DNA of 64,000 nt from an uncultured Bacteroidota bacterium (lineage in GTDB: Bacteria; Bacteroidota; Bacteroidia; Bacteroidales; P3), in NCBI GenBank assembly GCA_902776365.1, contig CACYPU010000002.1:131180-195179 (forward strand), written 5' to 3'. The translations under genes were made by a program, and so were the position numbers. How positions within the stretch are numbered: position 1 is the first letter of the stretch; the number at the start of each line of letters is the position of its first letter. The notes below the pieces were generated by a model, which saw only the letters and a list, made by a program, of their open reading frames with translations, was not told where the DNA came from and searched no databases. Below are positions 50,920 to 63,320 of this stretch, piece after piece.

Positions 50920-53900
50920 TTATTTTACTAATTCGTTTGCTATCAATTCCGCCTGTTTCAGCACCGTCTCGGTGGCCAATGCCTGCATGTCGGGCGGGTA
51001 GCCATACTTGCGCAACAACCGCTTCACCGCCACTTTCATCTTAGCCCTTACGTTCTCCTTGATGGTCCAGTCGATGGTGCTGTTCTTACGAATGGTCTCG
51101 GTGAGTACCACAGCCAGCTCTCGCAGCTTGTCCTTGCCCATCAACTCGCGGGCACTCTCGTTGTCGGCTACGGCGGTATAGAAGGCGTATTCGTAGGTTT
51201 CCAGCCCCATCTCCTGTGCCGCGCTGTCGCTGGCCACTATCTGTTTGCTGAGTTTGATAAGCTCGTCTATTACCTCGGCGGCGGAGACTATTTTATTGTG
51301 GTAACGTGTGATGGAGCCGTCGAGCATCTCCATCAACGTGCGACTCTCTACGAGGTTGTATTTCGACCGTGCCTTGATTTCATCTTCTAGCAACTTCCGT
51401 AGAACTTCAAGAGCGATATTCTTGTGTTCCATGCCTTTCAACTCCATCAGGAATTCCTCAGAGAGGATGGAAATATCGGGTTTCTTGATGCCGGCGGCAT
51501 CGAAGAGGTCTATCACCTGTTCCGACACCAGCGCTTGGTCTATCACCTGCCTAATGGTGGTCTCAATCTCCTCGTTGGTGTGTCCGCCGCCTTTGGCATC
51601 GAACTTGCACAGGCGTGCTTTCACGGCTTGGAAGAAAGCCACTTCGTCTTTTACATCCATTGCCTCCTCATTCGGAATAGCCAATGCGAAAGCCTTTCCC
51701 AAGGAGGTTACCTCGTTGACAAACCTTATCTTGCCGTCTTCGAGTCCGAGGATGAAATCTTCGGCTTTGAGTATCCACGACAACTTGCCTTTGGTGTCGG
51801 AAGAGAAATATTGCGGCCATTCTAACCCGTGCAGCATCTGTTCCACCACCTCCAGCTTCTCTTTCATCAGTTCCACCGCCTGTGACTGCTGCTGTGTGGG
51901 GTCGCCCTTGCCGCCGCTGTCGGAATAGAACGAAAGCGCTTTCTTCAGGTCAGCAGCGATGCCGAGGTAGTCCACCACCAAGCCGCCGGGCTTGTCCTTA
52001 TAGACGCGGTTCACGCGGGCAATGGCCTGCATCAGATTGTGGCCCTGCATGGGCTTGTCGATATAGAGGGTATGCAGACAGGGCACGTCGAAGCCCGTGA
52101 GCCACATGTCGCGCACTATCACCATTTTCAACTCATCATCAGGATCTTTCATCCTTTCGGCTAGCAGATGGCGGTCGGCCTTGGTGGTATGGTGCTTGGC
52201 AATGGCGGGACCGTCGGAGGCCGAGGTGGTCATCACCACCTTCAACGCTCCTTTGCGCAGGTCGTCGCTGTGCCATTCGGGCCGCAGCTTGATGATTTTG
52301 TCGTAGAACTCCACGGCAATCCTGCGGCTCATGGCTACAATCATGGCTTTGCCCTCGAATACTTGCTGGCGTGCCTCGAAGTGTTCCACGATGTCGCGGG
52401 CGATGTTCTTCACACGGTTGGGGCTGCCTATCAGGGCTTCCAGCTGTGTCCACTTGGCTTTGGCCTTCTGCACATCGTCCAGTTCCTTCACATCGAGTTC
52501 CTTGTCCAGTTCTTCCACCAGCTTGCGTCCTTCGGCGCTCAACTCCACCTTGGCCAGACGGCTCTCGTAGTAGATACGCACCGTGGCGCCGTCCTCCACC
52601 GCCTGTGCGATGTCATAGACGTCGATGTAGTTGCCGAAGACAGCGGGTGTGTTCTTGTCGCTCAGCTCGATGGGCGTGCCGGTGAAGCCGATATAGGTGG
52701 CGTTGGGCAGCGCGTCGCGCAGGTATTTGGCGAAGCCGTACTTGATTTCGGAGCCCACCACCTCGTCGGCTTCGTTGCGCACATCCTTGGTCTTGGCGCC
52801 GAAGCCATACTGAGTGCGGTGCGCCTCGTCGGCTATCACCACTACGTTGGTGCGGTCGGTAAGCCTGTCGTATATATTGCCCTCTTCGGGCTGGAATTTC
52901 TGTATGGTAGTAAAAACCACGCCACCCGACTGCACCGCAAGCAGACCTTTCAAATGTTCACGGCTATCCGCCTGCACGGGTGTCTGTCGCAGCAGTTGTT
53001 TGGAGGAGACGAAGGTCTCGAAGAGCTGGTCGTCGAGGTCGTTGCGGTCGGTGATGACCACGATGGTGGGGTTGTTCAGCCGCTGCACTATCTTGCCGGC
53101 ATAGAACACCATCGACAGCGACTTGCCGCTACCCTGCGTATGCCATACTACACCGGCGCGGTGGTCGCCCGTATGCTGTTCACGCACTGTCTTGAAACCG
53201 AAGTTCTCCGGTGATTCGGCAGCCATCGGCATACTGCTGTTGATGCCCGAGGCCCTCAATGTGGACTCCACGGCTTTGTTGACGGCATAGTATTGATGGT
53301 AGGCCGCCAGCTTCTTCACCGTGGTGATAGTGATTTGGCCCGTGGCTTTGTCCTCGTGTTTGTCTTTTTCAAAGACGGTGAACGCCTGCACCAGGTCAAG
53401 CAGCGTCTCGGGGTTCAGCATCCCATTTAGCAGCACCTCCAACTCGCCTTTCAAGTGTGAGGCTATGGTCTCGCCATCTTCGCTTTTCCATGCGGTGAAT
53501 CGGCTCAGTCCCGACGACAGGGTGCCAGCCTTGGCCTCCAAGCCGTCGCTGATTACGATGACCTCGTTATATCTGAACAGCATCGGTATTTGCTCCTTGT
53601 AGGTGCCTATCTGGTCGTAGGCCTTGGTGATGGTGGCCTCCTCGTCGGCGGCATTCTTCAGTTCCATCACCACCAGCGGCAAGCCGTTGACGAACAGCAC
53701 CATGTCGGGCCGCAGGTTATGACCATTCTCTATGACGGTGAACTGGTTGACCACCGTGAACTCGTTGTTCCACGGGTCGTCGAAGTCCACCAGCCACACC
53801 TTCTTTCCGCGCTCCTCACCCTCTTCGTACACCGACACCGTCACGCCCTGTGTCAGCAGCTCGTGGAACTGCTCGTTGTCGGTCAGCAGATCGGTGGAGC

Positions 53901-54132
53901 CGATGCGCAGCACCATCTTGACGGCCTCGTCGAGCACCGCAGCAGGCAGCGACGGGTTGAGCCGCCGCACCGCTGCCTCCAGCTTTTCGCGCAGCACCAC
54001 CTCGCCCAACGATGTCCGCATAGGCGACTGTCCGTCCGGCGCGATATCAGGGCCGTAGAGGTATTCATACCCACGGCTCTGCAGTATCTCGATGGTCATC
54101 TGCTCAATGTCCGATTCCGTCAGCTTGGTCAT
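50920..54132 (-). CDS. hsdR: type I restriction endonuclease subunit R
   Basis: SF2 helicase motifs (HTQGSGKS, VIADEAHRTQ) and an HsdR N-terminal nuclease region. The ATG at 54132 (MTKLTESDIEQ) is preferred over the TTG at 54156. Confidence 0.9.
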   Translation of the reverse strand: MTKLTESDIEQMTIEILQSRGYEYLYGPDIAPDGQSPMRTSLGEVVLREKLEAAVRRLNPSLPAAVLDEAVKMVLRIGSTDLLTDNEQFHELLTQGVTVSVYEEGEERGKKVWLVDFDDPWNNEFTVVNQFTVIENGHNLRPDMVLFVNGLPLVVMELKNAADEEATITKAYDQIGTYKEQIPMLFRYNEVIVISDGLEAKAGTLSSGLSRFTAWKSEDGETIASHLKGELEVLLNGMLNPETLLDLVQAFTVFEKDKHEDKATGQITITTVKKLAAYHQYYAVNKAVESTLRASGINSSMPMAAESPENFGFKTVREQHTGDHRAGVVWHTQGSGKSLSMVFYAGKIVQRLNNPTIVVITDRNDLDDQLFETFVSSKQLLRQTPVQADSREHLKGLLAVQSGGVVFTTIQKFQPEEGNIYDRLTDRTNVVVIADEAHRTQYGFGAKTKDVRNEADEVVGSEIKYGFAKYLRDALPNATYIGFTGTPIELSDKNTPAVFGNYIDVYDIAQAVEDGATVRIYYESRLAKVELSAEGRKLVEELDKELDVKELDDVQKAKAKWTQLEALIGSPNRVKNIARDIVEHFEARQQVFEGKAMIVAMSRRIAVEFYDKIIKLRPEWHSDDLRKGALKVVMTTSASDGPAIAKHHTTKADRHLLAERMKDPDDELKMVIVRDMWLTGFDVPCLHTLYIDKPMQGHNLMQAIARVNRVYKDKPGGLVVDYLGIAADLKKALSFYSDSGGKGDPTQQQSQAVELMKEKLEVVEQMLHGLEWPQYFSSDTKGKLSWILKAEDFILGLEDGKIRFVNEVTSLGKAFALAIPNEEAMDVKDEVAFFQAVKARLCKFDAKGGGHTNEEIETTIRQVIDQALVSEQVIDLFDAAGIKKPDISILSEEFLMELKGMEHKNIALEVLRKLLEDEIKARSKYNLVESRTLMEMLDGSITRYHNKIVSAAEVIDELIKLSKQIVASDSAAQEMGLETYEYAFYTAVADNESARELMGKDKLRELAVVLTETIRKNSTIDWTIKENVRAKMKVAVKRLLRKYGYPPDMQALATETVLKQAELIANELVK

Positions 54133-54137
54133 AAGTG

Positions 54138-55157
54138 CTATATGTTTAGTTTCCAATATCCGTTCTTGTCCTCGCCTATACGTATTAGAATACCCATTTC
54201 TTTCAATGCCGCAATATTTCGTGTAATAGTTGATCTGTCCACATCAAGAGTTGTTGCCATTTCATCGTATGTGGTATAAGGATTATTTCTTAGAATATCT
54301 ATAATGGCAGCTTGTCTCTTAGTTATATTTACAGGTGCATTTACAGGTGCATTTACAGGTGCATTAAGCGGCTCACCTTTATGTTGCAGTACGGACTTAT
54401 GTATCTCCTCCAGCATAAAGTCGATGAAGGGACCACACTCGCCCTGCTTGGTACTTTGGGCGATGGCGTCATAGTAGGCCTGCTGGTTGGAATAGACCAT
54501 ATTCTCCACAGGCAGGTGCGCAAAAGCAGGGTGCCAGCGGCTGAGGATGAGCGACTGCCACAGGCGGCCCATACGTCCGTTGCCATCGATAAACGGATGG
54601 ATAAACTCGAACTCATAATGGAAGACACAGCTGCGCACCAACAGGTGGTCGTCGGCATTCTTCAGCCAGTCGAAGAGGTCGGACATCAGCCCATGCACCC
54701 TGTCGGATGGAGGGGCCATGTGTACCAGGCCGCTCTCGGAATAGACGCCTACGCCGCCCCTGCGGAAATGACCTGCGTCATCGGTCAAGGCGGACATCAT
54801 CAGTCCGTGAGCCCGCAGTAGGTCGTCCATCGAGAAGGGGTCGAGCTTTTCAAACTCATCATACACCCGTATGGTGTTCTTCACCTCCTGAATCTCGCGG
54901 ATGGGTGCCACCACCGTCTTGCCGTCAAGGATATCGGCCACCTCACTCTCCCGAAGACGGTTGCCCTCTATGGCCAATGAGCTATGGATGGTCTTGATAC
55001 GGTTGGCCTTGCGCAGCCGCAAGGCATCGCTCTGCTCCATACGGATGGCAAACCGCTCCATCTGGGCGGCGATATCCGCCACCAGCCCCACTGCCTTCGC
55101 CGACAATGTGAAAGGTGGTTTGTATCCATTATATGTCTTTGTCTTTTTTTCAGCCAT
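54138..55157 (-). CDS. Fic family protein (class II, N-terminal inhibitory helix) with C-terminal wHTH
   Basis: Fic motif HPFIDGNGRMGR, inhibitory motif SLAIEGN, and a C-terminal HTH (..VDRSTITRNIAALKEMGILIR). Confidence 0.85.
   Translation of the reverse strand: MAEKKTKTYNGYKPPFTLSAKAVGLVADIAAQMERFAIRMEQSDALRLRKANRIKTIHSSLAIEGNRLRESEVADILDGKTVVAPIREIQEVKNTIRVYDEFEKLDPFSMDDLLRAHGLMMSALTDDAGHFRRGGVGVYSESGLVHMAPPSDRVHGLMSDLFDWLKNADDHLLVRSCVFHYEFEFIHPFIDGNGRMGRLWQSLILSRWHPAFAHLPVENMVYSNQQAYYDAIAQSTKQGECGPFIDFMLEEIHKSVLQHKGEPLNAPVNAPVNAPVNITKRQAAIIDILRNNPYTTYDEMATTLDVDRSTITRNIAALKEMGILIRIGEDKNGYWKLNI
54328..54363 (-). repeat. 3 perfect 12-nt repeats (NAPV x3) in the Fic linker
   Basis: TTTACAGGTGCA x3. 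Confidence 0.9.
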
Positions 55158-55233
55158 AATTGTTAGTCTCCCTTCTTCGATCCCTCTATGTGGGTTCTAT
55201 GATCCTTCGGTGATGGTTCGGTGATATTCAACA

Positions 55234-55257
55234 AATAGGATTATGATTAATCCTATT
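55234..55257 (-). terminator. 10-bp hairpin overlapping the stop of the 812-aa gene
   Basis: AATAGGATTA/TAATCCTATT with a weak U tract. Confidence 0.3.
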
Positions 55258-57691
55258 TTTCTTGACCACCATCTGTTCCTCCTGTAATTCTTCTGATATA
55301 TCTTTGCTTTCCTTTTCCGACTTTTTTCAGTTCCTCTTCTATTTGAGTATATTTTTTCTCTTTTTCTTCATTTCTCAACTTCATTTCTTCATATGTGCTA
55401 ATCATTTTCTCTGCCGCTGGAATCATCTTATACCCTTTGCTCTGTATCTCTTTTGCAAAACTTACAAAATCATCCAAATTATAATTCAGTGTAAGAGCAG
55501 TTTTAGAGTCGTTCTTATCTGATTCATCACTATCGTTCGAATAAATCAATTCCTCATTCTTGGTCATTAATTCATGTATTTCCTTCTTTAACTCCCTTTT
55601 TAATCTAGGTAATTCTTTTCCTCGTAAATCAACACCTGACTCAATTAGAGATTTTATTTCCTCCCAACTCTGATTTACAGCCTCTGCCAAGAAGGGATTT
55701 CCTAATAGATTTACAATCGCTTTATTTGACGAATCAAACAAACCTATTTCTGACAATAATGCCACTAGCACTTTTGGTCTTGCCACTACAGAGCTATAGA
55801 GATTAACTTCTTTTGCACATCTTATTGCACGACTTGAACTTGTAACGAGATATGCGATTCCAAATAACATCTGATTATTTCTTTGGGGAATATTTTTATT
55901 GAGTTCTCTAGCCAATAGGTAAAGTTCAGCGTCAGTTTTTGCAATGCGCCAATTCTCCTCAGGAGTTCTATATGCAGCCTTGGGCGTTTTAATTGTTTCG
56001 TCGTATATCAACTGGGTTAGATTATCACAATCTACCTCGCTAATACTTACACTATCAATCAAGGACTCATCTCCAATCACAACACCTTTCGGAAGTCTAT
56101 GTTCCATTACTTCTAACATAAAATTGTATTCATCAGTCTCATCATAAATATTTTGTATATAGGATGAGAATGTGTCATCTGAATACTCATTATCATTACG
56201 GAGAATATTAATATAATAATCTATAACAAAAACATTTGATAATTTTTCATATACCACAGTTTCATTTACAGCAGTAAAAGTATTCCTAAAATAATTGAAA
56301 TTTCTTTTTGCGAAACTAGCATGAATGACAACTTCTTCTACTACACTCTTTGGTATATACACTTTACAACCATTATTTAACAACTCTTTTAGAAGGACTG
56401 TGTATATGTCACTAAACGGCCCGTATTTAACCATACAATTAAGGACAAAATCAGTATCCAAGATATACATCTTGCTTGCGAATGTTTTTTTCTGGAATCC
56501 TGCCAACATTGGATCCAATCTCATCAATTGAGTTCCAATATATGCTCTTGCCCATAATAAAATTGTTTGGAATTGTTCATCATTTGGCTTGCTTAGTATT
56601 TCTCCAAGTCCATACACAAGGCATTCACCCAAGTCAGGTTGGATGCTATCAGTAAGTATTTTTATCAGTTCTTTCTGACGTACCATCCCTGAAACAATAT
56701 TATCTTCATTGATTGCCAGGTCTTGCCCATAATATTTGAAAAATAAATTCAATGTTTTTTGTATATTATTCCATATTTGTTTGATTTCACTATCACTTAA
56801 AGGTATTCCATCTGCAAGTTCTTGCATTTTTGTAATAATATCATTAATCAGGGCATTTGTTCGTTGTTCCATATGAGAAATGCCTTCCATCATCTCAGAC
56901 TTTGCTTTCGTTGATGCTGAGATTTTTTCCTCTTCGTTACTTATAAGACCCTCCCTTTTCAATCTTTCTATCGATGCTCTTATCTGCGATTCGTCAATAA
57001 TACAGCCAAATTCCTTATGGAATTCGTCAATAATTTCGCTTCGTGACAAACCACCCGAATATGTTGAAATTAATGACAATATGGATTTATCAAACAAGGA
57101 TTTTTTTTGTGTTTTTTCTTTTAGCTTCGGAGAAAGTGAAAAAAGCAACGTGCTTTTAATCATCGAACTTGTTAGCAAACTTTCCCCATCTGTTGAGAAA
57201 TAATTATTTTTCAAAAAATCCTCCTCTATTTGAGCTTTAATGTTGGGGAAGTATCTTGAAATAATATCTTTGTGTTCTCCTGTCACAAGAATAAATGTTG
57301 ATAAATCAAATATCTGTAATGTCTTTGAATGCTCCATTCTGAATTTGCTTTCCAATCCCTTTATGCTATTTACAGATTGTGAAGTCACAAAAACCAGTTC
57401 ATCAAATACAACATTATTATCATTTAATTTTTTTACGGTAGCTTTTATTTTTGCATTTGAATCCTTCTGCATTGTAAACTGGAATACTCGGCTTATTTTT
57501 GTTTCGTCCTGATAAATTTCAGAACTTATAGCATCAACACCATCATCTTTAATGCCACCGACTTTTCTTATTCGAGGAAATCCGTAATATCCCATAACCT
57601 CCAAACACAACTGCTCGAATTTAAAGAAATCAGTATAATTACTTAATGCAAGTTCAATTATATCCATATTATATAATTTAATATTATTCAC
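55253..57691 (-). CDS. Mrr-like PD-(D/E)xK nuclease / wHTH / PIN-like / coiled-coil fusion protein (uncharacterised)
   Basis: 812 aa. Residues 24-76 read FEQLCLEVMGYYGF..GGIKDDGVDAIS..RVFQFTMQK (Mrr_cat-like). Residues 215-251 look like a wHTH. Residues 408-625 have YILDTDFVLN, VVEEV and KTDAELYLLA (PIN-like acidic residues). The tail is Lys/Glu-rich. Confidence 0.6.
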   Translation of the reverse strand: MNNIKLYNMDIIELALSNYTDFFKFEQLCLEVMGYYGFPRIRKVGGIKDDGVDAISSEIYQDETKISRVFQFTMQKDSNAKIKATVKKLNDNNVVFDELVFVTSQSVNSIKGLESKFRMEHSKTLQIFDLSTFILVTGEHKDIISRYFPNIKAQIEEDFLKNNYFSTDGESLLTSSMIKSTLLFSLSPKLKEKTQKKSLFDKSILSLISTYSGGLSRSEIIDEFHKEFGCIIDESQIRASIERLKREGLISNEEEKISASTKAKSEMMEGISHMEQRTNALINDIITKMQELADGIPLSDSEIKQIWNNIQKTLNLFFKYYGQDLAINEDNIVSGMVRQKELIKILTDSIQPDLGECLVYGLGEILSKPNDEQFQTILLWARAYIGTQLMRLDPMLAGFQKKTFASKMYILDTDFVLNCMVKYGPFSDIYTVLLKELLNNGCKVYIPKSVVEEVVIHASFAKRNFNYFRNTFTAVNETVVYEKLSNVFVIDYYINILRNDNEYSDDTFSSYIQNIYDETDEYNFMLEVMEHRLPKGVVIGDESLIDSVSISEVDCDNLTQLIYDETIKTPKAAYRTPEENWRIAKTDAELYLLARELNKNIPQRNNQMLFGIAYLVTSSSRAIRCAKEVNLYSSVVARPKVLVALLSEIGLFDSSNKAIVNLLGNPFLAEAVNQSWEEIKSLIESGVDLRGKELPRLKRELKKEIHELMTKNEELIYSNDSDESDKNDSKTALTLNYNLDDFVSFAKEIQSKGYKMIPAAEKMISTYEEMKLRNEEKEKKYTQIEEELKKVGKGKQRYIRRITGGTDGGQEK

Positions 57692-57702
57692 TATATTTAA
57701 TA

Positions 57703-58941
57703 TTATCCGATTTTCACTTCGCCTAACATCAGTCTAGGCAGTAATGCATCGCGTTGTGCAGACAGCGCGAGTATCTGTTGTTTATTTGCATTTATTTTAT
57801 CAAAATAAGGTTTTACTTGGTTGTTGAAGTCAATAACAACTTTTTCATCTGTTGGTACATTCCAGTCCATCTCATAAAGCGCTGCCTTATAGTTTAGGTT
57901 GTGTATTCCTGAACTACCATTCTCTAAGTTGAAGAATTCGCCCTGCTTGTGTAGATAACGGAAAAAACAATAAACAAAGAATGTGTGTCTTTCATCAACT
58001 CGTAATAATCTACAAAAGTTTGAAAACACAATAGGGTAATCGAACAATTGCTTTACTCCTTCATTAATATATGCAACTCTGCCTGTGGAGCAAGTATCCG
58101 TACCGCCAGATATTTCTAGGATAATATCTCCATTGTTCGGCTTGATTTTCTCGTATTTGCTTGGCTTTACATATCGAAGAGGTGTTCTTGTCGCAATCCC
58201 GTCATTCAAGTCAGCAACATCCGCACCCCTTAGGCATCGTACTGGCATACCGCTCTCACCTTCAGGTGTCTCCGTTCCCCATTCTCCACCTATTGTTTCA
58301 ATAACATAGTCTCCCAGTTTGCCTTCTTTCCAGGTGGGGTCGGGGTTTTCGATGAAGTAGTGGCGGAAGAGGGTTTCGGCGAGGGCTTCAAGGGTCGCGT
58401 TCTCCCGATTCAACAAATCTATCTTGTCATCCAACGAACTCAACACCCCCGCAATCCGATTCTGCTCGTCAAGTGGCGGCAATTTTAAAACAATATTTTC
58501 AAAATCACTTTTATTCACAATAGGAACAGCTGTCCCATCCCCACCTAATACTCTCAATGTATCATAAGCATTCAAAAGCGAGTAATAGACAAAATCATTA
58601 TCGTACTCTTTGTACGGAACAATTGCGTTTATTTGCTGATTCGTAATACACATGACGTTATTCATAACCACTTTCCCCATATCAGAACCTATGCAGGTCA
58701 CAAGGATGGATTTGGGTGGCAATACTTTCTTTTTTAGTCGTTCAAGGCCGGATACCGAAAGCTTGCGAATACTATCCTTCGCATATTTACCATAATTACA
58801 ATAATCCGATGGGGTTATAAAAAGAAAATTATTCCCCCAATCTTCAGGATTACGAACCGAAGGTGTCTTCCCTGTAATAATTTCTCCTATTTCTCCCAAC
58901 CTATATTCTTTCCATTCACTCATAGGCAGTATTTCTAACAT
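57703..58941 (-). CDS. hsdS: type I restriction-modification specificity subunit
   Basis: Two target-recognition halves are separated by the conserved helix LPPLDEQNRIAGVLSSLDDKIDLL, with a C-terminal ..RDALLPRLMLGEV. The alternative start is at 58923. Confidence 0.9.
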   Translation of the reverse strand: MLEILPMSEWKEYRLGEIGEIITGKTPSVRNPEDWGNNFLFITPSDYCNYGKYAKDSIRKLSVSGLERLKKKVLPPKSILVTCIGSDMGKVVMNNVMCITNQQINAIVPYKEYDNDFVYYSLLNAYDTLRVLGGDGTAVPIVNKSDFENIVLKLPPLDEQNRIAGVLSSLDDKIDLLNRENATLEALAETLFRHYFIENPDPTWKEGKLGDYVIETIGGEWGTETPEGESGMPVRCLRGADVADLNDGIATRTPLRYVKPSKYEKIKPNNGDIILEISGGTDTCSTGRVAYINEGVKQLFDYPIVFSNFCRLLRVDERHTFFVYCFFRYLHKQGEFFNLENGSSGIHNLNYKAALYEMDWNVPTDEKVVIDFNNQVKPYFDKINANKQQILALSAQRDALLPRLMLGEVKIG

Positions 58942-58985
58942 AAAGTATTCATCATTACCAATCTATAGCTGATAAAAAAATTGTA

Positions 58986-59906
58986 TTACATAAACTCGAA
59001 TGCCAACAATGTTTTTACTCTCTGTTTCTCTTTTTCTGTCATATGTCGAGCAATATAAGGATATGTATTAATAAACACTTTCTTCATTTTTTCAAAGGCT
59101 GTTTTATCCATATCATGTTCATCTTGAATACTATTAATAAAGGCCATCAATCTCATTATCCATACAGTCGGATTGCATAATTCATCAATAGATTCCCATC
59201 CACCATCATTAAGGCCAGACTTTCTATATTTTTCTCGTAATAGATGGTCACACACTCCACAGCATGCAAAATACATATCTTTATAAACAGTTTTTTTCTC
59301 TTTTTCAAAAGTATCACTGTCATACAAGAGTACATAGTTTCCATGCTCACTCTCTAACAATAAGTTTTTACCACAATAATCACAACATAGCTCGGCATTA
59401 TTGTCAAATATTTTTGACGGTGTCGGATTTTCAATTTGATACTTTTTAAATGATGTGGGGAAATATCTACAAGCAATCTTGTGTCCATCAAGATTGTTTA
59501 ATAAAAAGGATTCTATCTTTTCGCGATCAAAAACGAGATAATGCTCTTGTCCTTGTAAAATACCAGACAAAGACGTGGATGCCAACGTTGAATAAACCCC
59601 CATAAAACCATCACAATGATGTTGCTTTAACCTATCGCTTATATTTATCTCGTCACTATCATTTACAGCACGACCTGAATGAGCAAAATGTTTGCAGCTC
59701 ACTAACCAACGGATTGTATACTCACTTGTTATGCCTTTTATTACTTCATCAACAATCAAATCCTTTTTTCCGTCAGCTCCTCTGTCTGGATCTTGTACGA
59801 TTCTATATCCAAGGTAAGATAAAAAATCTCTTGTAAGCAGTTCAAAGGTATCTTGCAAACCTGTGCCTTTGTTTGCTTCTGGTATTTCTTTAAAATCTAA
59901 AATCAT
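58986..59906 (-). CDS. Mrr-like PD-(D/E)xK domain protein with CCxxC..CCxxC module (uncharacterised)
   Basis: 306 aa with FELLTRDFLSYLGY..GADGKKDLIVDE..IRWLVSCKH, then CCDYCGK (174-178) and CCGVCDH (215-219). Confidence 0.6.
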   Translation of the reverse strand: MILDFKEIPEANKGTGLQDTFELLTRDFLSYLGYRIVQDPDRGADGKKDLIVDEVIKGITSEYTIRWLVSCKHFAHSGRAVNDSDEINISDRLKQHHCDGFMGVYSTLASTSLSGILQGQEHYLVFDREKIESFLLNNLDGHKIACRYFPTSFKKYQIENPTPSKIFDNNAELCCDYCGKNLLLESEHGNYVLLYDSDTFEKEKKTVYKDMYFACCGVCDHLLREKYRKSGLNDGGWESIDELCNPTVWIMRLMAFINSIQDEHDMDKTAFEKMKKVFINTYPYIARHMTEKEKQRVKTLLAFEFM

Positions 59907-60139
59907 ACTTTTCTCTTTTTTTATTACATCTTTTCTATTACGACATTGTACCTTACTATATTTTTTTTCTACCTAATAATTATAACTAATAATCAATACT
60001 TTTTCATAAAGATTACGCGGTCGTTGATTTTATCGGTGGGGGGCCTGGTACAACAGCTCACGAATGTACGTATTATCGGTGTGGTTTTCTATCACAGTAT
60101 TCATCTCCTTTTTATTAATATTTTTTCCTTTCGCTCATA

Positions 60140-60397
60140 TTACAGTTTTTCTTTGATATCCTCTATCTCTTGTTCCAATTTATCACGCTCCTCAAAATGT
60201 TTGTTCTTTACTAAGCCAGCCAACGGAGAGAATGGACTAATATGCGTTATTTCATTCAATCGTTCGTAACGTTCTTCCTTTTTCCGTAGTTTCCTTTGCA
60301 AATAGCCTTTGCTATTTCTTACCATAAAGACTAATGTTGCCACCATCACCACTAGTGATGCGCATGCGATTATTATTGTTAGTGTTTCCGTACTCAT
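60140..60397 (-). CDS. small single-TM coiled-coil protein
   Basis: 85 aa with an N-terminal TM (LTIIIACASLVVMVATLVFMV) and a charged helical tail. Confidence 0.45.
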   Translation of the reverse strand: MSTETLTIIIACASLVVMVATLVFMVRNSKGYLQRKLRKKEERYERLNEITHISPFSPLAGLVKNKHFEERDKLEQEIEDIKEKL

Positions 60398-60420
60398 ATC
60401 GTTTCTATTCCTTATTTTTC

Positions 60421-60454
60421 AGTTATTAAGTAATCCTTAATAACTGGTTTTTTA
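60421..60454 (+). terminator. plus-strand intrinsic-terminator-like hairpin
   Basis: 11-bp perfect stem CAGTTATTAAG/CTTAATAACTG followed by G TTTTTT. The orientation is opposite to the surrounding operon. Confidence 0.45.
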
Positions 60455-60558
60455 ATGTTTATTTGTTACCGTCACTTAATTCTCTTTCGCTTGGCAATTG
60501 TTCCACAAGTTGTGGAATTATTTGTTTCTCAAGCACCCCCAAGTTGAGGGTGTTTTTC

Positions 60559-61680
60559 CTATTTAGATATGTTTTCCTCGATCAGTTTTTGTAGTTCCTC
60601 TTTGCTCGGCAAATAGGTCTGGTATTTGCTGGCGAAGATTTGGTTGTTGTCTTTCGGTAGGGTAATCTCAACCATTGCATCGCTTTTGTCAGTACACAAC
60701 AAGATTCCAATGGTCGGATTCTCCTCCTCGGTTTTCACGAAGCGGTCGTAGTAGTTGACATACATCTGCATCTGCCCAAGATCTTGATGCTTCAATGTTC
60801 CTCGTTTGAGGTCTATCAACACAAATGCTCTAAGCAGACGATTGTAAAATACCAAGTCCACACGGAAATGCTGCTCGTCGAAGGTAAACCGCACCTGCCG
60901 CCCGACAAAAGTAAATCCCTTACCCAACTCCAGCAAGAAAGTCTGCAGATGGTCTATCAGACGCTGTTCCAACTCGCTCTCGCTATATTGTGGCAACTCT
61001 TTCAGCCCAAGGAACTCCAACACGTAGGGGTCTTTCACCACATCCTCAGGCTTCTCTATTATCTGTCCTTTTTGTGCTAGCGACTTCACTCCCTTCTTGT
61101 CTTTGCTAAGAGCCAACCGTTCATACAACGAACTGTCGAACTGTCGTTGTAATTCCCGCAGACTCCAGTTATTCTCCGTGGCCTCAATCTCATAGAAACG
61201 CCTTTCGTCGGGGTTCTCAATGCGCATCAGCTTCAAATAGTGCGACCAACTGAGGGTGAAATGCAATTTGTCAGACGCTGTCTGACCTTTTTGAGAAGAT
61301 TCCGCAGACAGTGTCTGCGAAATTGGAGAAATCCGAGACGGTGTTGCGGAATTTTCTTCTTTCAATGATTTTCTAGACGGTGTTTGGAAAATTTGAATTC
61401 TCTGCGAATAGATTACATAGAACTGTCTCATTTGTTCTATGTTTCTTTCAGAGAATCCTTTTCCGAATTTCCTTGTAAGCCTATTGGACAATTGCCTAAT
61501 AACAGCTTTCCCATAATTAGCTCGATAGTTGCCTTGCTGCTCATCCTCTACAATCATCCGACCTATCTCATAATAGGTATAGACCATGGCAGTGTTGACC
61601 GCCGTGATGGTGCGTTTGCGGGCTTCTTCTATCAGATGCTCTATCTTTTCTCCTAAATCTATCTTCTGTATCTGCTCCAT
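60559..61680 (-). CDS. PDDEXK nuclease domain protein (YhcG/DUF1016 family)
   Basis: 373 aa with an N-terminal DUF1016-like helical region and a C-terminal ..RVDLVFYNRLLRAFVLIDLKRG.. nuclease core. Confidence 0.8.
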   Translation of the reverse strand: MEQIQKIDLGEKIEHLIEEARKRTITAVNTAMVYTYYEIGRMIVEDEQQGNYRANYGKAVIRQLSNRLTRKFGKGFSERNIEQMRQFYVIYSQRIQIFQTPSRKSLKEENSATPSRISPISQTLSAESSQKGQTASDKLHFTLSWSHYLKLMRIENPDERRFYEIEATENNWSLRELQRQFDSSLYERLALSKDKKGVKSLAQKGQIIEKPEDVVKDPYVLEFLGLKELPQYSESELEQRLIDHLQTFLLELGKGFTFVGRQVRFTFDEQHFRVDLVFYNRLLRAFVLIDLKRGTLKHQDLGQMQMYVNYYDRFVKTEEENPTIGILLCTDKSDAMVEITLPKDNNQIFASKYQTYLPSKEELQKLIEENISK

Positions 61681-61682
61681 AA

Positions 61683-63203
61683 TTAGTCAATCTTTATTTT
61701 TGACAGGTTCTCCAGTATCACTTTGTTCAGGCGTTCTTCTTCTTTCAGCTGGGCTTCCAGTTCGGCGCGGAGGGCGGTGAAACGTTCGGCGAAGTTGAAG
61801 TCGTCTTCCTCTTCGGGTAGACCGACATAACGGCCGGGGGTGAGCACATAGTCCAGTTCGGCCACACGGCTGACGGGCACCGAGGCACAGAAGCCCGGCA
61901 CATCGGCATAGTCCTTAGACTCGTCGCGCCAGCGGTGGTAAGTGTCGGCGATGGTGTGGATATCTTCCTCTGTCAGCTCGCGTGTGCGACGGTTGATAAG
62001 ACGGCCCATATTGCGGGCATCGACGAAGAGTATCTCGCCAGCCCTCTTTTGGCGGTTGCGGGTGACGAACCACAGGCAGGCGGGTATCTGTGTGTTAAGG
62101 AAGAGCTTGGCGGGCAGGTTGACGATACAGGCGATGAGGCCTTTGTCGATAAGCGCACGACGGATTTCGCCTTCGCCTCCTGTTTTTGACGTCAGCGAGC
62201 CTTTGGCCAGAACGAAGCCTGCCTGCCCGTTGGGGGCTAGGTGATAGATAAAGTGTTGTATCCAGGCGAAGTTGGCATTGCCGGCAGGCGGTACGCCATA
62301 CTGCCAGCGGGCGTCGCCACGCAGCTGGTCGCCACTCCAGTCGCTGTCGTTGAACGGCGGGTTGGCAATGACGAAGTCGGCCTTCACGTCCTTGTGGGCA
62401 TCGTTAAGGAACGATCCTTCGGTGTTCCACTTCACCTGCGAGGCGTCGATGCCGCGGATGGCGAGGTTCATCTTGCAGAGGCGCCAGGTGGTCTGGTTGC
62501 TCTCCTGACCGTAAATGGAGATATCCTCCACACGTCCCTGATGCTGACGCACAAACTTGTCGCTCTGCACGAACATGCCGCCCGAGCCACAACAGGGGTC
62601 AAGTACACGGCCGTGATAGGGTTCCAGCATCGTCACCAGCAACTCCACAACGCTCCTCGGCGTGTAGAATTGTCCACCCTTCTTGCCTTCTGCCAGAGCA
62701 AACTCGCCAAGGAAATACTCGAACACGTGCCCAAGCAGGTCGGCGCTGCGCGTGCTGGTGTTCTGCAGGGTAGAGTTGCCGATAAGGTCAATCAGCTCGC
62801 CCAGCGACGTGGGGTCAAGGTTGGGACGGGCAAAAACCTTGGGCAGCACGCCTTTGAGCGTCTTGTTCTCACGTTCGATAGCATCCATGGCATCGTCAAT
62901 AAGCTTGCCAATCTGCGGGTTCTTGGCATCGGCCACCAGACGGCTCCAGCGGGCACTCTCAGGCACATAGAACACATTCTCGGCTGCATACTCCTCGCGG
63001 TCCTCCGGGTCGGCACCGTCAACTTGTTGCTTCAGCAGCTCATTGTACAGTCGTTCAAATTCAACAGAAATATAGCGCAGGAATATCAGTCCCAGCACCA
63101 CATGCTTGTATTCCGCCGCATCGATGTTTTTGCGCAGTTTGTCCGCCGCCTTCCACAATCGCTTTTCCAGCGGTTCCTCTAAAGTCTCCTTTTTCTTAGC
63201 CAT
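61683..63203 (-). CDS. hsdM: type I restriction-modification methyltransferase subunit M
   Basis: The start is trimmed to MAKKKETLEEPLEKRLW. It has the HsdM N-domain (YKHVVLGLIFLRYIS), motif I DPCCGSGGMF and motif IV NPPF. Confidence 0.92.
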   Translation of the reverse strand: MAKKKETLEEPLEKRLWKAADKLRKNIDAAEYKHVVLGLIFLRYISVEFERLYNELLKQQVDGADPEDREEYAAENVFYVPESARWSRLVADAKNPQIGKLIDDAMDAIERENKTLKGVLPKVFARPNLDPTSLGELIDLIGNSTLQNTSTRSADLLGHVFEYFLGEFALAEGKKGGQFYTPRSVVELLVTMLEPYHGRVLDPCCGSGGMFVQSDKFVRQHQGRVEDISIYGQESNQTTWRLCKMNLAIRGIDASQVKWNTEGSFLNDAHKDVKADFVIANPPFNDSDWSGDQLRGDARWQYGVPPAGNANFAWIQHFIYHLAPNGQAGFVLAKGSLTSKTGGEGEIRRALIDKGLIACIVNLPAKLFLNTQIPACLWFVTRNRQKRAGEILFVDARNMGRLINRRTRELTEEDIHTIADTYHRWRDESKDYADVPGFCASVPVSRVAELDYVLTPGRYVGLPEEEDDFNFAERFTALRAELEAQLKEEERLNKVILENLSKIKID

Positions 63204-63227
63204 GAATTCTTTATGATTAACAAAATG

Positions 63228-63235
63228 CAAAAATA
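63228..63235 (-). promoter_or_regulatory. -7 box TAnnTTTG for the R-M operon
   Basis: Minus-strand TATTTTTG, 25 nt upstream of the ATG at 63203. Confidence 0.6.
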
Positions 63236-63320
63236 CGAATTTTCCACGACATGGACAAATTATATTTAAAAAGGTTTTCAACATAGCATCAACCTGCAAT
63301 CACCCTACCATCTCCTATCA

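Follow-up and report, generated by a model that had tools for sequence, protein, structure and literature searches.

Does a nuclease-like gene lodged inside a type I restriction-modification operon work together with the genes around it, or is it carried there as an independent unit? The question is raised by a 64,000-nucleotide stretch of DNA from an uncultured Bacteroidota bacterium (contig CACYPU010000002.1; the window, whose positions serve as coordinates throughout), in which a 306-aa protein (p306) is encoded on the minus strand at 58986..59906, directly upstream of hsdS, and an 812-aa protein (p812) is encoded by a neighbouring gene at 55253-57691 of the same strand. A first-pass annotation made from the sequence alone had offered two roles for p306, a partner or sensor for p812 and an independent type IV-like restriction enzyme. 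Our analysis favours, with moderate confidence, p306 as an autonomous single-gene nuclease immunity protein, in which an Mrr/MspJI-type effector head is followed by a novel Cys4 specificity or sensor domain, and whose gene is an exchangeable cargo of the type I operon.

p306 is specified by one open reading frame (ORF) of 306 codons and a stop codon, with an ATG start and the stop at 58986-58988. Its length, its coordinates, its low GC content and its 44-nt distance to hsdS had been reported in the first-pass annotation and all hold against the ORF list and the GC profile, to which we add the strand. The GC content of the gene is 0.32-0.34 in comparison to 0.55-0.60 in hsdR and hsdM. It is not a chance ORF, because 680 homologues were recovered at E<=1e-3, nearly all of 295-320 aa and aligned end to end.

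The N-terminal nuclease-like head

Residues 1-157 (59436..59906, minus strand), which end in a conserved RYFP, form an Mrr_cat-like PD-(D/E)xK head according to family-level Pfam matches, Foldseek comparison and an AlphaFold2 (AF2) model. p306 itself scores below the gathering cut-off of the Pfam Mrr_cat model (PF04471; 21 bits), reaching 19.0 bits over residues 19-75 when searched as a full protein (E=0.0016) and 20.5 bits as the N-domain alone. The same model is matched by 32 of 34 diverse N-domains and by 45 of 55 relatives with other architectures, with a best E of 1.7e-8 and several scores above 25 bits. In the AF2 model of the full-length protein (mean predicted local distance difference test, pLDDT, 81.7) the head is built from a helix at residues 20-31, strands at 35-38, 50-57 and 62-72, a helix at 89-95 and a strand at 100-105, which on this prediction is the alpha-beta-beta-beta-alpha-beta core of the PD-(D/E)xK fold. 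The closest structures found with Foldseek were those of AspBHI (4oc8, E=1.6e-5) and MspJI (4f0p/4f0q, E=1.2e-4), with matches to these two enzymes ranging from 1.6e-5 to 5.5e-4, followed by EcoT38I and the Mrr-like protein AF1548 (1y88). The Mrr-like nuclease fold assigned earlier to the N-terminal region is thus borne out by the family-level Mrr_cat matches and by the likeness to AspBHI and MspJI.

The putative active site comprises the stretch D49-X20-S70-C71-K72-X13-E86 (59649..59762, minus strand) together with E22 (59841-59843, minus strand). In a set of 342 sequences, drawn from many phyla, each of E22, D49, S70, K72 and E86 is present in 97% or more. Residue counts in this set were 333 for E22, 341 for D45, 340 for D49, 337 for E54, 341 for S70, 337 for C71, 342 for K72, 341 for H73 and 340 for E86, and the head as a whole carries the signature FE...GADGxKD...WLVSCKHxAHSG...DE...GFxGxYST...RYFP. 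The spacing of D49-X20-S70-C71-K72 is identical to that of the catalytic motif DX20QAK of MspJI, formed by D334, Q355 and K357 (PMC3479186). The p306 family departs from the canonical (D/E)...(D/E/Q)xK motif at its middle residue, which is Ser in 341 of the 342 sequences; of the catalytic D/E-x-K residues expected by the first-pass annotation, Asp and Lys are therefore present, while the middle acidic or Gln position is taken by an invariant Ser.

Active enzymes with Ser at the canonical E/D position are known in Cfr10I and NgoMIV, and in Cfr10I a Glu located 14 residues past the Lys substitutes for the missing residue (PDX55KX13E; PMC2532715). E86 of p306 is invariant and lies exactly 14 residues past K72. 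Since this placement matches the Cfr10I precedent, the p306 head is probably active with a variant active site, in which E86 or E22 may compensate for the Ser. The site resembles those of Cfr10I, NgoMIV and SgrAI (PD...SxK...E) in the Ser and in K72-X13-E86, although these are type II enzymes with cognate methylases and no detectable sequence relationship to p306, and the likeness of E86 is one of sequence position only.

The C-terminal Cys4 domain

The C-terminal domain (residues 160-306; 58989..59429, minus strand) is predicted by AF2 to consist of a Cys4 knuckle, three strands, two helices and a three-helix tail, and the domain modelled alone reached a pLDDT of 82.9 and a predicted template modelling score (pTM) of 0.74. 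Its cysteines are located at residues 174, 175 and 178 and at 215, 216 and 219, with 36 residues between C178 and C215, and had been read as a CCxxC...CCxxC module. Among 249 full-length relatives, C175 is kept in 249, C178 in 245, C215 in 241 and C219 in 234 (with His in a further 9), in comparison to only 37 for C174 and 15 for C216. The conserved, metal-site-like Cys pairs of the earlier reading stand, but the extra Cys of each CC is not conserved, so the true motif is CxxC...Cx3C (C175-x2-C178...C215-x3-C219; 59250..59384, minus strand).

In the models, C175 and C178 lie in the loop of the knuckle, C215 at the end of a strand and C219 at the start of the next helix. A treble-clef or TRASH-like metal site would be expected to show this placement, which points to a probable zinc site. 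The Pfam TRASH model gave a weak, sub-threshold match to residues 209-229 (E=0.0022, 18.5 bits against a cut-off of 27); the Cys spacer of TRASH is about 20 residues, in comparison to 36 in p306. Foldseek searches with the domain model gave nothing significant, the best E being 1.2 against the PDB and 0.05 against BFVD, and the domain is consequently structurally unclassified. A homologue search with the C-domain alone, which sought other heads on a Cys4 tail, yielded only 14 candidates from the word index and was uninformative.

Genomic neighbourhoods

Neighbourhoods were compared at 80 species-level loci, covering up to 10 kb on each side of the p306 homologue and with the window proteins as phmmer queries. 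A p812 homologue was found at none of the 80 loci, hsd genes at two, DUF1016 at three and Fic at one, and the 549 neighbouring ORFs fell into 524 clusters, the largest of which spans three loci. The p306 family has no conserved partner of any kind, including a cognate methyltransferase. Of the two roles offered by the first-pass annotation, the independent type IV-like restriction enzyme best fits the data.

The other proposal, a two-gene system with two related heads in which p306 acts as partner or sensor of p812, would agree with the location of both genes in one AT-rich block of one operon, with the distant relationship of their heads and with a natural chimera (P0176, described below) that joins a p306-type head to a p812-type body. 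Beyond the lack of p812 homologues in the survey, it is contradicted by the position of hsdS between the two genes and by the occurrence of each protein without the other. A protein 99% identical to p306 (P0001) is encoded shortly before hsdS, as in the window, within the same hsdM...hsdR-phoH backbone, and this locus carries SLFN_AlbA_2/HATPase_c_4 in place of DUF1016 and AAA_13 with a 345-aa protein in place of p812 and Fic. Homologues of p812 with 58-73% identity, in turn, are found without p306, either in the hsdS-hsdR slot of other type I operons or beside an integrase gene. A partnership of p306 and p812 is essentially excluded, and p812 is an independent cargo gene of the hsdS-hsdR slot whose head is related to that of p306.

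An 85-aa ORF with a hydrophobic N-terminus upstream of p306 (60140..60397, minus strand) was also considered as a partner and rejected, as it is conserved only among near-identical loci of the closest relatives and was not found beside distant homologues. Its counterpart in locus L081 is a 76-aa ORF (L081:9543-9773) with 78% identity. The DNA of the two loci is about 75% identical in the 5' half of the 85-aa ORF and upstream of it. A near-identical block begins midway along this ORF, spans p306 and extends into the 5' end of hsdS; the divergence upstream of this block places a recombination breakpoint inside the 85-aa ORF.

The head as a shared module

Among the 150 best representatives, 88 combine the head with the Cys4 tail, 57 carry the head on other tails and five consist of the head only. 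The alternative tails are mostly without a Pfam domain, but one contains an nSTAND NTPase (P0269) and another a NACHT domain (P0254), and both are NLR-like immune proteins that have the p306-type head in the N-terminal effector position. No modification-reader domain (SRA, PUA/EVE, winged helix, DUF3427 and others) was detected in 55 alternative tails.

The first-pass annotation had regarded the N-terminal regions of p306 and p812 as two divergent paralogous nuclease heads. A profile comparison of the full-length proteins was not significant (E=0.36), whereas hhalign of the N-domains only, with a more diverse head profile, aligned residues 20-152 with residues 24-151 over 117 columns at E=1.8e-4. 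The FE...D...D motifs of the two N-domains are in register and both domains end in RYFP, at approximately 18% identity. The chimera P0176, itself of 812 aa, matches the p306 head over its first 160 residues (E=1.2e-68) and from the RYFP junction onwards has a p812-type body with 28% identity to the p812 of the window (E=3e-73). The two heads thus appear to be related, weakly by sequence and clearly by architecture. The hhalign match and the chimera indicate interchangeable modules of one broad class; that the heads are local paralogues is not supported, given their low identity and independent distributions.

It is possible, and we advance this only tentatively, that the head of approximately 157 aa is an effector module, so far unnamed and unusually conserved, which a large modular immune family of at least 1,226 clusters combines with more than 10 unrelated sensor tails, among them STAND NTPases and the p812-type body. 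p306, with its head and structurally novel Cys4 domain, would then represent the commonest architecture of this family and a new single-gene system against phages or mobile genetic elements.

Three parts were observed in p812 itself, namely a divergent Mrr-like head whose counterpart of the catalytic Lys in the alignment is apparently another residue (VFQFTMQK), weak winged-helix matches at residues 204-255, and an invariant ILDTDF at residues 410-415 that resembles the first acidic motif of PIN domains. Searches of p812 against Pfam, PADLOC and NCBIfam returned no significant match.

Distribution and mobile contexts of the family

A filter-free profile search identified at least 1,226 clusters of relatives at 50% identity, a lower bound on family size, of which 366 had E<=1e-30. 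A scan of one genome per species located relatives in Bacteroidota, Alpha-, Gamma- and Deltaproteobacteria, Campylobacterota, Firmicutes, Chloroflexi, Planctomycetes, Cyanobacteria, Acidobacteria, Verrucomicrobia and Actinobacteria. Sequence searches of the PDB returned nothing meaningful, whether the query was p306 itself or a profile of the family or of the N-domain.

Many relatives reside on mobile elements or among defence genes. One lies in another type I operon (L082), after hsdS and between a 316-aa unknown protein and hsdR, and another is found on an integrase-bearing element. Others lie in islands carrying putAbiC, HipAB, DndB, Hachiman or RhuM/Fic, on a 4.9-kb MOBQ Acinetobacter plasmid of only five genes, and, next to genes for a TrlF-family ATPase and a caspase-like protein, on a conjugative plasmid of Sinorhizobium. 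Neighbouring families also include the defence genes SLFN_AlbA_2, Eco57I-type IIG, SIR2, pAgo, HigB, AAA_13, DpdF, HerA and PD-Lambda-1.

In CTnDOT-like conjugative elements, a p306 relative is flanked by the coupling-protein gene and by traA, and in some copies Hachiman lies on the far side. These integrative and conjugative elements (ICEs; L087-L098) show further peculiarities. The coupling-protein gene is shortened to 383-475 aa, and DDE transposase matches are present in some copies. A relaxase gene would be expected at the position of the p306 homologue, and a MobC_2 (mobA-like) gene is kept only in L088. In several copies, approximately 1.7 kb without a called gene follows the p306 homologue.

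The P2-like Escherichia coli prophage P2-EC67 carries a relative as ORF1 of its Z-region (AJ512685, CAD54909), with 36% identity to p306 over approximately 290 residues (E=1e-55) in a match that spans both domains and the Cys motif. ORF1 is the sole ORF of this region, has its own annotated promoter and is annotated as a "putative lysogenic conversion protein". The gene was found in 13 of 5,426 complete E. coli genomes, after tail-fibre assembly genes, under the PGAP name "restriction endonuclease". The P2 hotspot of Rousset et al. is the gpA-gpQ locus and not the Z-region (PMC9122126). P2-EC67 ORF1 is a true member of the p306 family, which differs from p306 in host phylum and context and is likewise uncharacterised; literature searches by the accessions of the E. 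coli protein and for P2-EC67 found no paper. In the P2-EC67 record (AJ512685.1; L109), the ORF is flanked by annotated inverted repeats at 3-115 (about 113 nt) and 1255-1345 (about 91 nt), an arrangement that suggests a cassette-like unit. Comparable repeats flanking p306 were sought in the window, with only short, chance-level matches.

Mode of action and alternative readings

If p306 is an autonomous immunity protein, it would be a single-polypeptide cargo of the hsdM-hsdS variable slot of the type I operon, with a head that acts as a metal-dependent Mrr/MspJI-type PD-(D/E)xK nuclease through a Cfr10I-like variant site (E22, D49, S70-x-K72, E86). The Cys4 C-domain, which probably binds zinc, would serve as a specificity or regulatory module that sets what or when the head cuts, and its ligand may be some feature of the invading DNA or a product made by a phage or plasmid. 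Recognition of this ligand would license the heads for DNA cleavage, probably through oligomerisation as in the MspJI and AspBHI tetramers. The hsd operon would probably serve p306 only for transcription and as a recombination scaffold, and p306 would most likely provide independent anti-phage or anti-plasmid defence.

Within this reading, p306 may act as a type IV enzyme that directly recognises modified or foreign DNA, or as a nuclease activated by a trigger. The former is favoured by the closest folds (AspBHI and MspJI) and by a solitary nuclease without a methylase in the 80 loci, but Pfam, Foldseek and the 55 alternative tails revealed no modification-reader domain. The latter agrees with the lack of a known modification-reader fold among so many tails and with the STAND fusions.

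Several results weigh against an autonomous nuclease. No modification-reader or DNA-binding fold was recognisable in the C-domain (Pfam; Foldseek against PDB and BFVD), and none of the curated models of PADLOC v2, NCBIfam and PHROGs was matched by p306, by its relatives on ICEs or by P0176; matches of the E. coli relative and of P0252 to the same collections were marginal and not significant (E of about 0.01). The counts of neighbouring families mix defence with housekeeping genes and, as raw counts, are too heterogeneous to support a claim of enrichment. Other points concern the active site. Mutation Q355A abolishes the activity of MspJI (PMC2938202), and as Ser replaces D/E/Q at this position in p306 the head could be inactive or use other chemistry. 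One relative also weakly matched the model of the "NACHT-associated inactive REase" (NA-iREase1; REase, restriction endonuclease) at E=0.0097, and on ICEs the gene is located in the interval between mob and tra, close to the presumed oriT. These points would suit a catalytically inactive restriction endonuclease fold that serves as a DNA-binding regulator or as a maintenance, exclusion or anti-restriction factor of mobile elements. We consider this rather unlikely, since D49, K72, E22 and E86 hardly vary between phyla or among any of the architectures, the typical pattern of a catalytic site, active enzymes with Ser at the same position exist, and the same head holds the N-terminal effector position of STAND NTPases.

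Two further explanations were weighed. An accessory dependent on the type I enzyme, as is PrrC, would be kept latent by the Hsd complex and freed when a phage inhibits that enzyme. In its favour, p306 precedes hsdS by 44 nt without an intervening terminator, and those relatives with at least 72% identity and a readable context all lie in or beside type I or DUF1016 genes. Obligate linkage to hsdMSR is nevertheless not observed, as hsd genes lie within 10 kb at only two of the 80 loci, relatives occur on ICEs, plasmids and a prophage without hsd genes, and the position in the operon varies from before hsdS in the window to after hsdS in L082, so that we regard such dependence as quite improbable. 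Alternatively, a toxin-like or selfish nuclease (addiction or homing) could be kept for the benefit of the mobile element and not for host immunity, as might be suggested by the frequent location on mobile elements, including one very small plasmid, and by the lack of a partner methylase. This explanation has a similarly low probability in our judgement, because no antitoxin-like neighbour is conserved, the window shows neither flanking repeats nor a target-site signature, and the gene is stably carried in chromosomal defence islands.

Comparison with known systems

The modification-dependent endonucleases MspJI, AspBHI and E. coli Mrr (type IV/IIM) share with p306 the PD-(D/E)xK fold, the D-X20-?-x-K spacing and the organisation as a single polypeptide that joins a nuclease to a specificity module without a cognate methyltransferase. 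p306 differs from them in the reversed order of its domains, with the nuclease at the N-terminus, in the invariant Ser in place of Q/E and the invariant H73 and E86, and in a Cys4 domain without structural match where these enzymes have an SRA or winged-helix reader.

Its location as a separate gene embedded between the hsd genes of an ordinary type I operon resembles that of TgvAB, PrrC, RloF and DUF1016/PDC-S02, and the operon of the window carries DUF1016, Fic and p812 as cargo besides p306. TgvAB is a type IV system inside the type I operon of V. cholerae VPI-2 (PMC11411939) and PrrC sits inside EcoprrI (PMC3874165). The p306 family is unrelated to either of these, TgvAB being GmrSD-like (DUF262/DUF1524) and PrrC an ABC-ATPase anticodon nuclease, and unlike them it is found mostly outside hsd operons.

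STAND/Avs-type proteins are comparable in that a p306-type head forms the N-terminal domain of nSTAND and NACHT proteins, although p306 itself has no NTPase. RAZR (PD-T7-4) is likewise a small single-gene combination of a zinc finger and a nuclease, but with an N-terminal zinc finger and a C-terminal HEPN RNase it is of opposite domain order and unrelated in sequence, and it was rejected as a relative. CMoRE, a GIY-YIG protein, was rejected as unrelated as well.

The type I operon of the window

The ORF list and Pfam matches place the genes in the minus-strand order hsdM (61683-63299), DUF1016/YhcG (60559-61680), the 85-aa ORF, p306, hsdS, p812, Fic (54138-55157), hsdR (50920-54156) and phoH. 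hsdS lies immediately downstream of p306 (57703..58941; Pfam Methylase_S, E=1.5e-33), and its start at 58941 leaves a 44-nt spacer (58942..58985) that contains no terminator-like site on the minus strand and is conserved with L081; hsdS is probably co-transcribed with p306. A promoter and terminator scan gave only background-level signals with a tool that lacks Bacteroidota promoters. GC content is mostly 30-36% across approximately 55250-60500, rising to about 45% in the middle of hsdS, in comparison to 55-60% in hsdR, hsdM and the flanks.

Compared with loci L081, L099, L101 and L082, the operon (50920-63299) behaves as a two-slot carrier whose cargo differs between close strains that share the hsd backbone. 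The hsdM-hsdS slot holds DUF1016, SLFN_AlbA_2/HATPase_c_4, Trypsin_2 or p306, together with small ORFs, and the hsdS-hsdR slot is occupied by AAA_13 with the 345-aa protein or by p812, which may or may not be accompanied by Fic.

Smaller features of the operon were also recorded. The Fic protein contains a short tandem peptide repeat (NAPV, three copies) between its Fic and helix-turn-helix domains, and the Fic ORF and the listed start of hsdR overlap by 19 nt. The listed hsdM ORF begins at a TTG approximately 30 codons upstream of an ATG (MAKKKETLEEP...); since the hsdM homologues called in L081, L099 and L101 are of 505-506 aa, this ATG is probably the true start.

Implications

Should p306 prove inactive or ordinary, the value of this analysis would lie in the correction that p306 and p812 form no system. 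If the head is indeed an immune effector module, the representative in the E. coli P2 Z-region would make the p306 architecture immediately testable. A head common to p306, to P0176 with its p812-type body and to the STAND fusions provides a handle for finding further sensor domains through "guilt by fusion". The locus also presents Bacteroidales type I restriction-modification operons as two-slot carriers of interchangeable defence cargo. If p306 is active, it would add to the defence repertoire a widespread and uncatalogued single-gene nuclease system, whose active site (SxK...E) would be unusual and whose metal-binding domain for sensing or specificity would be new.

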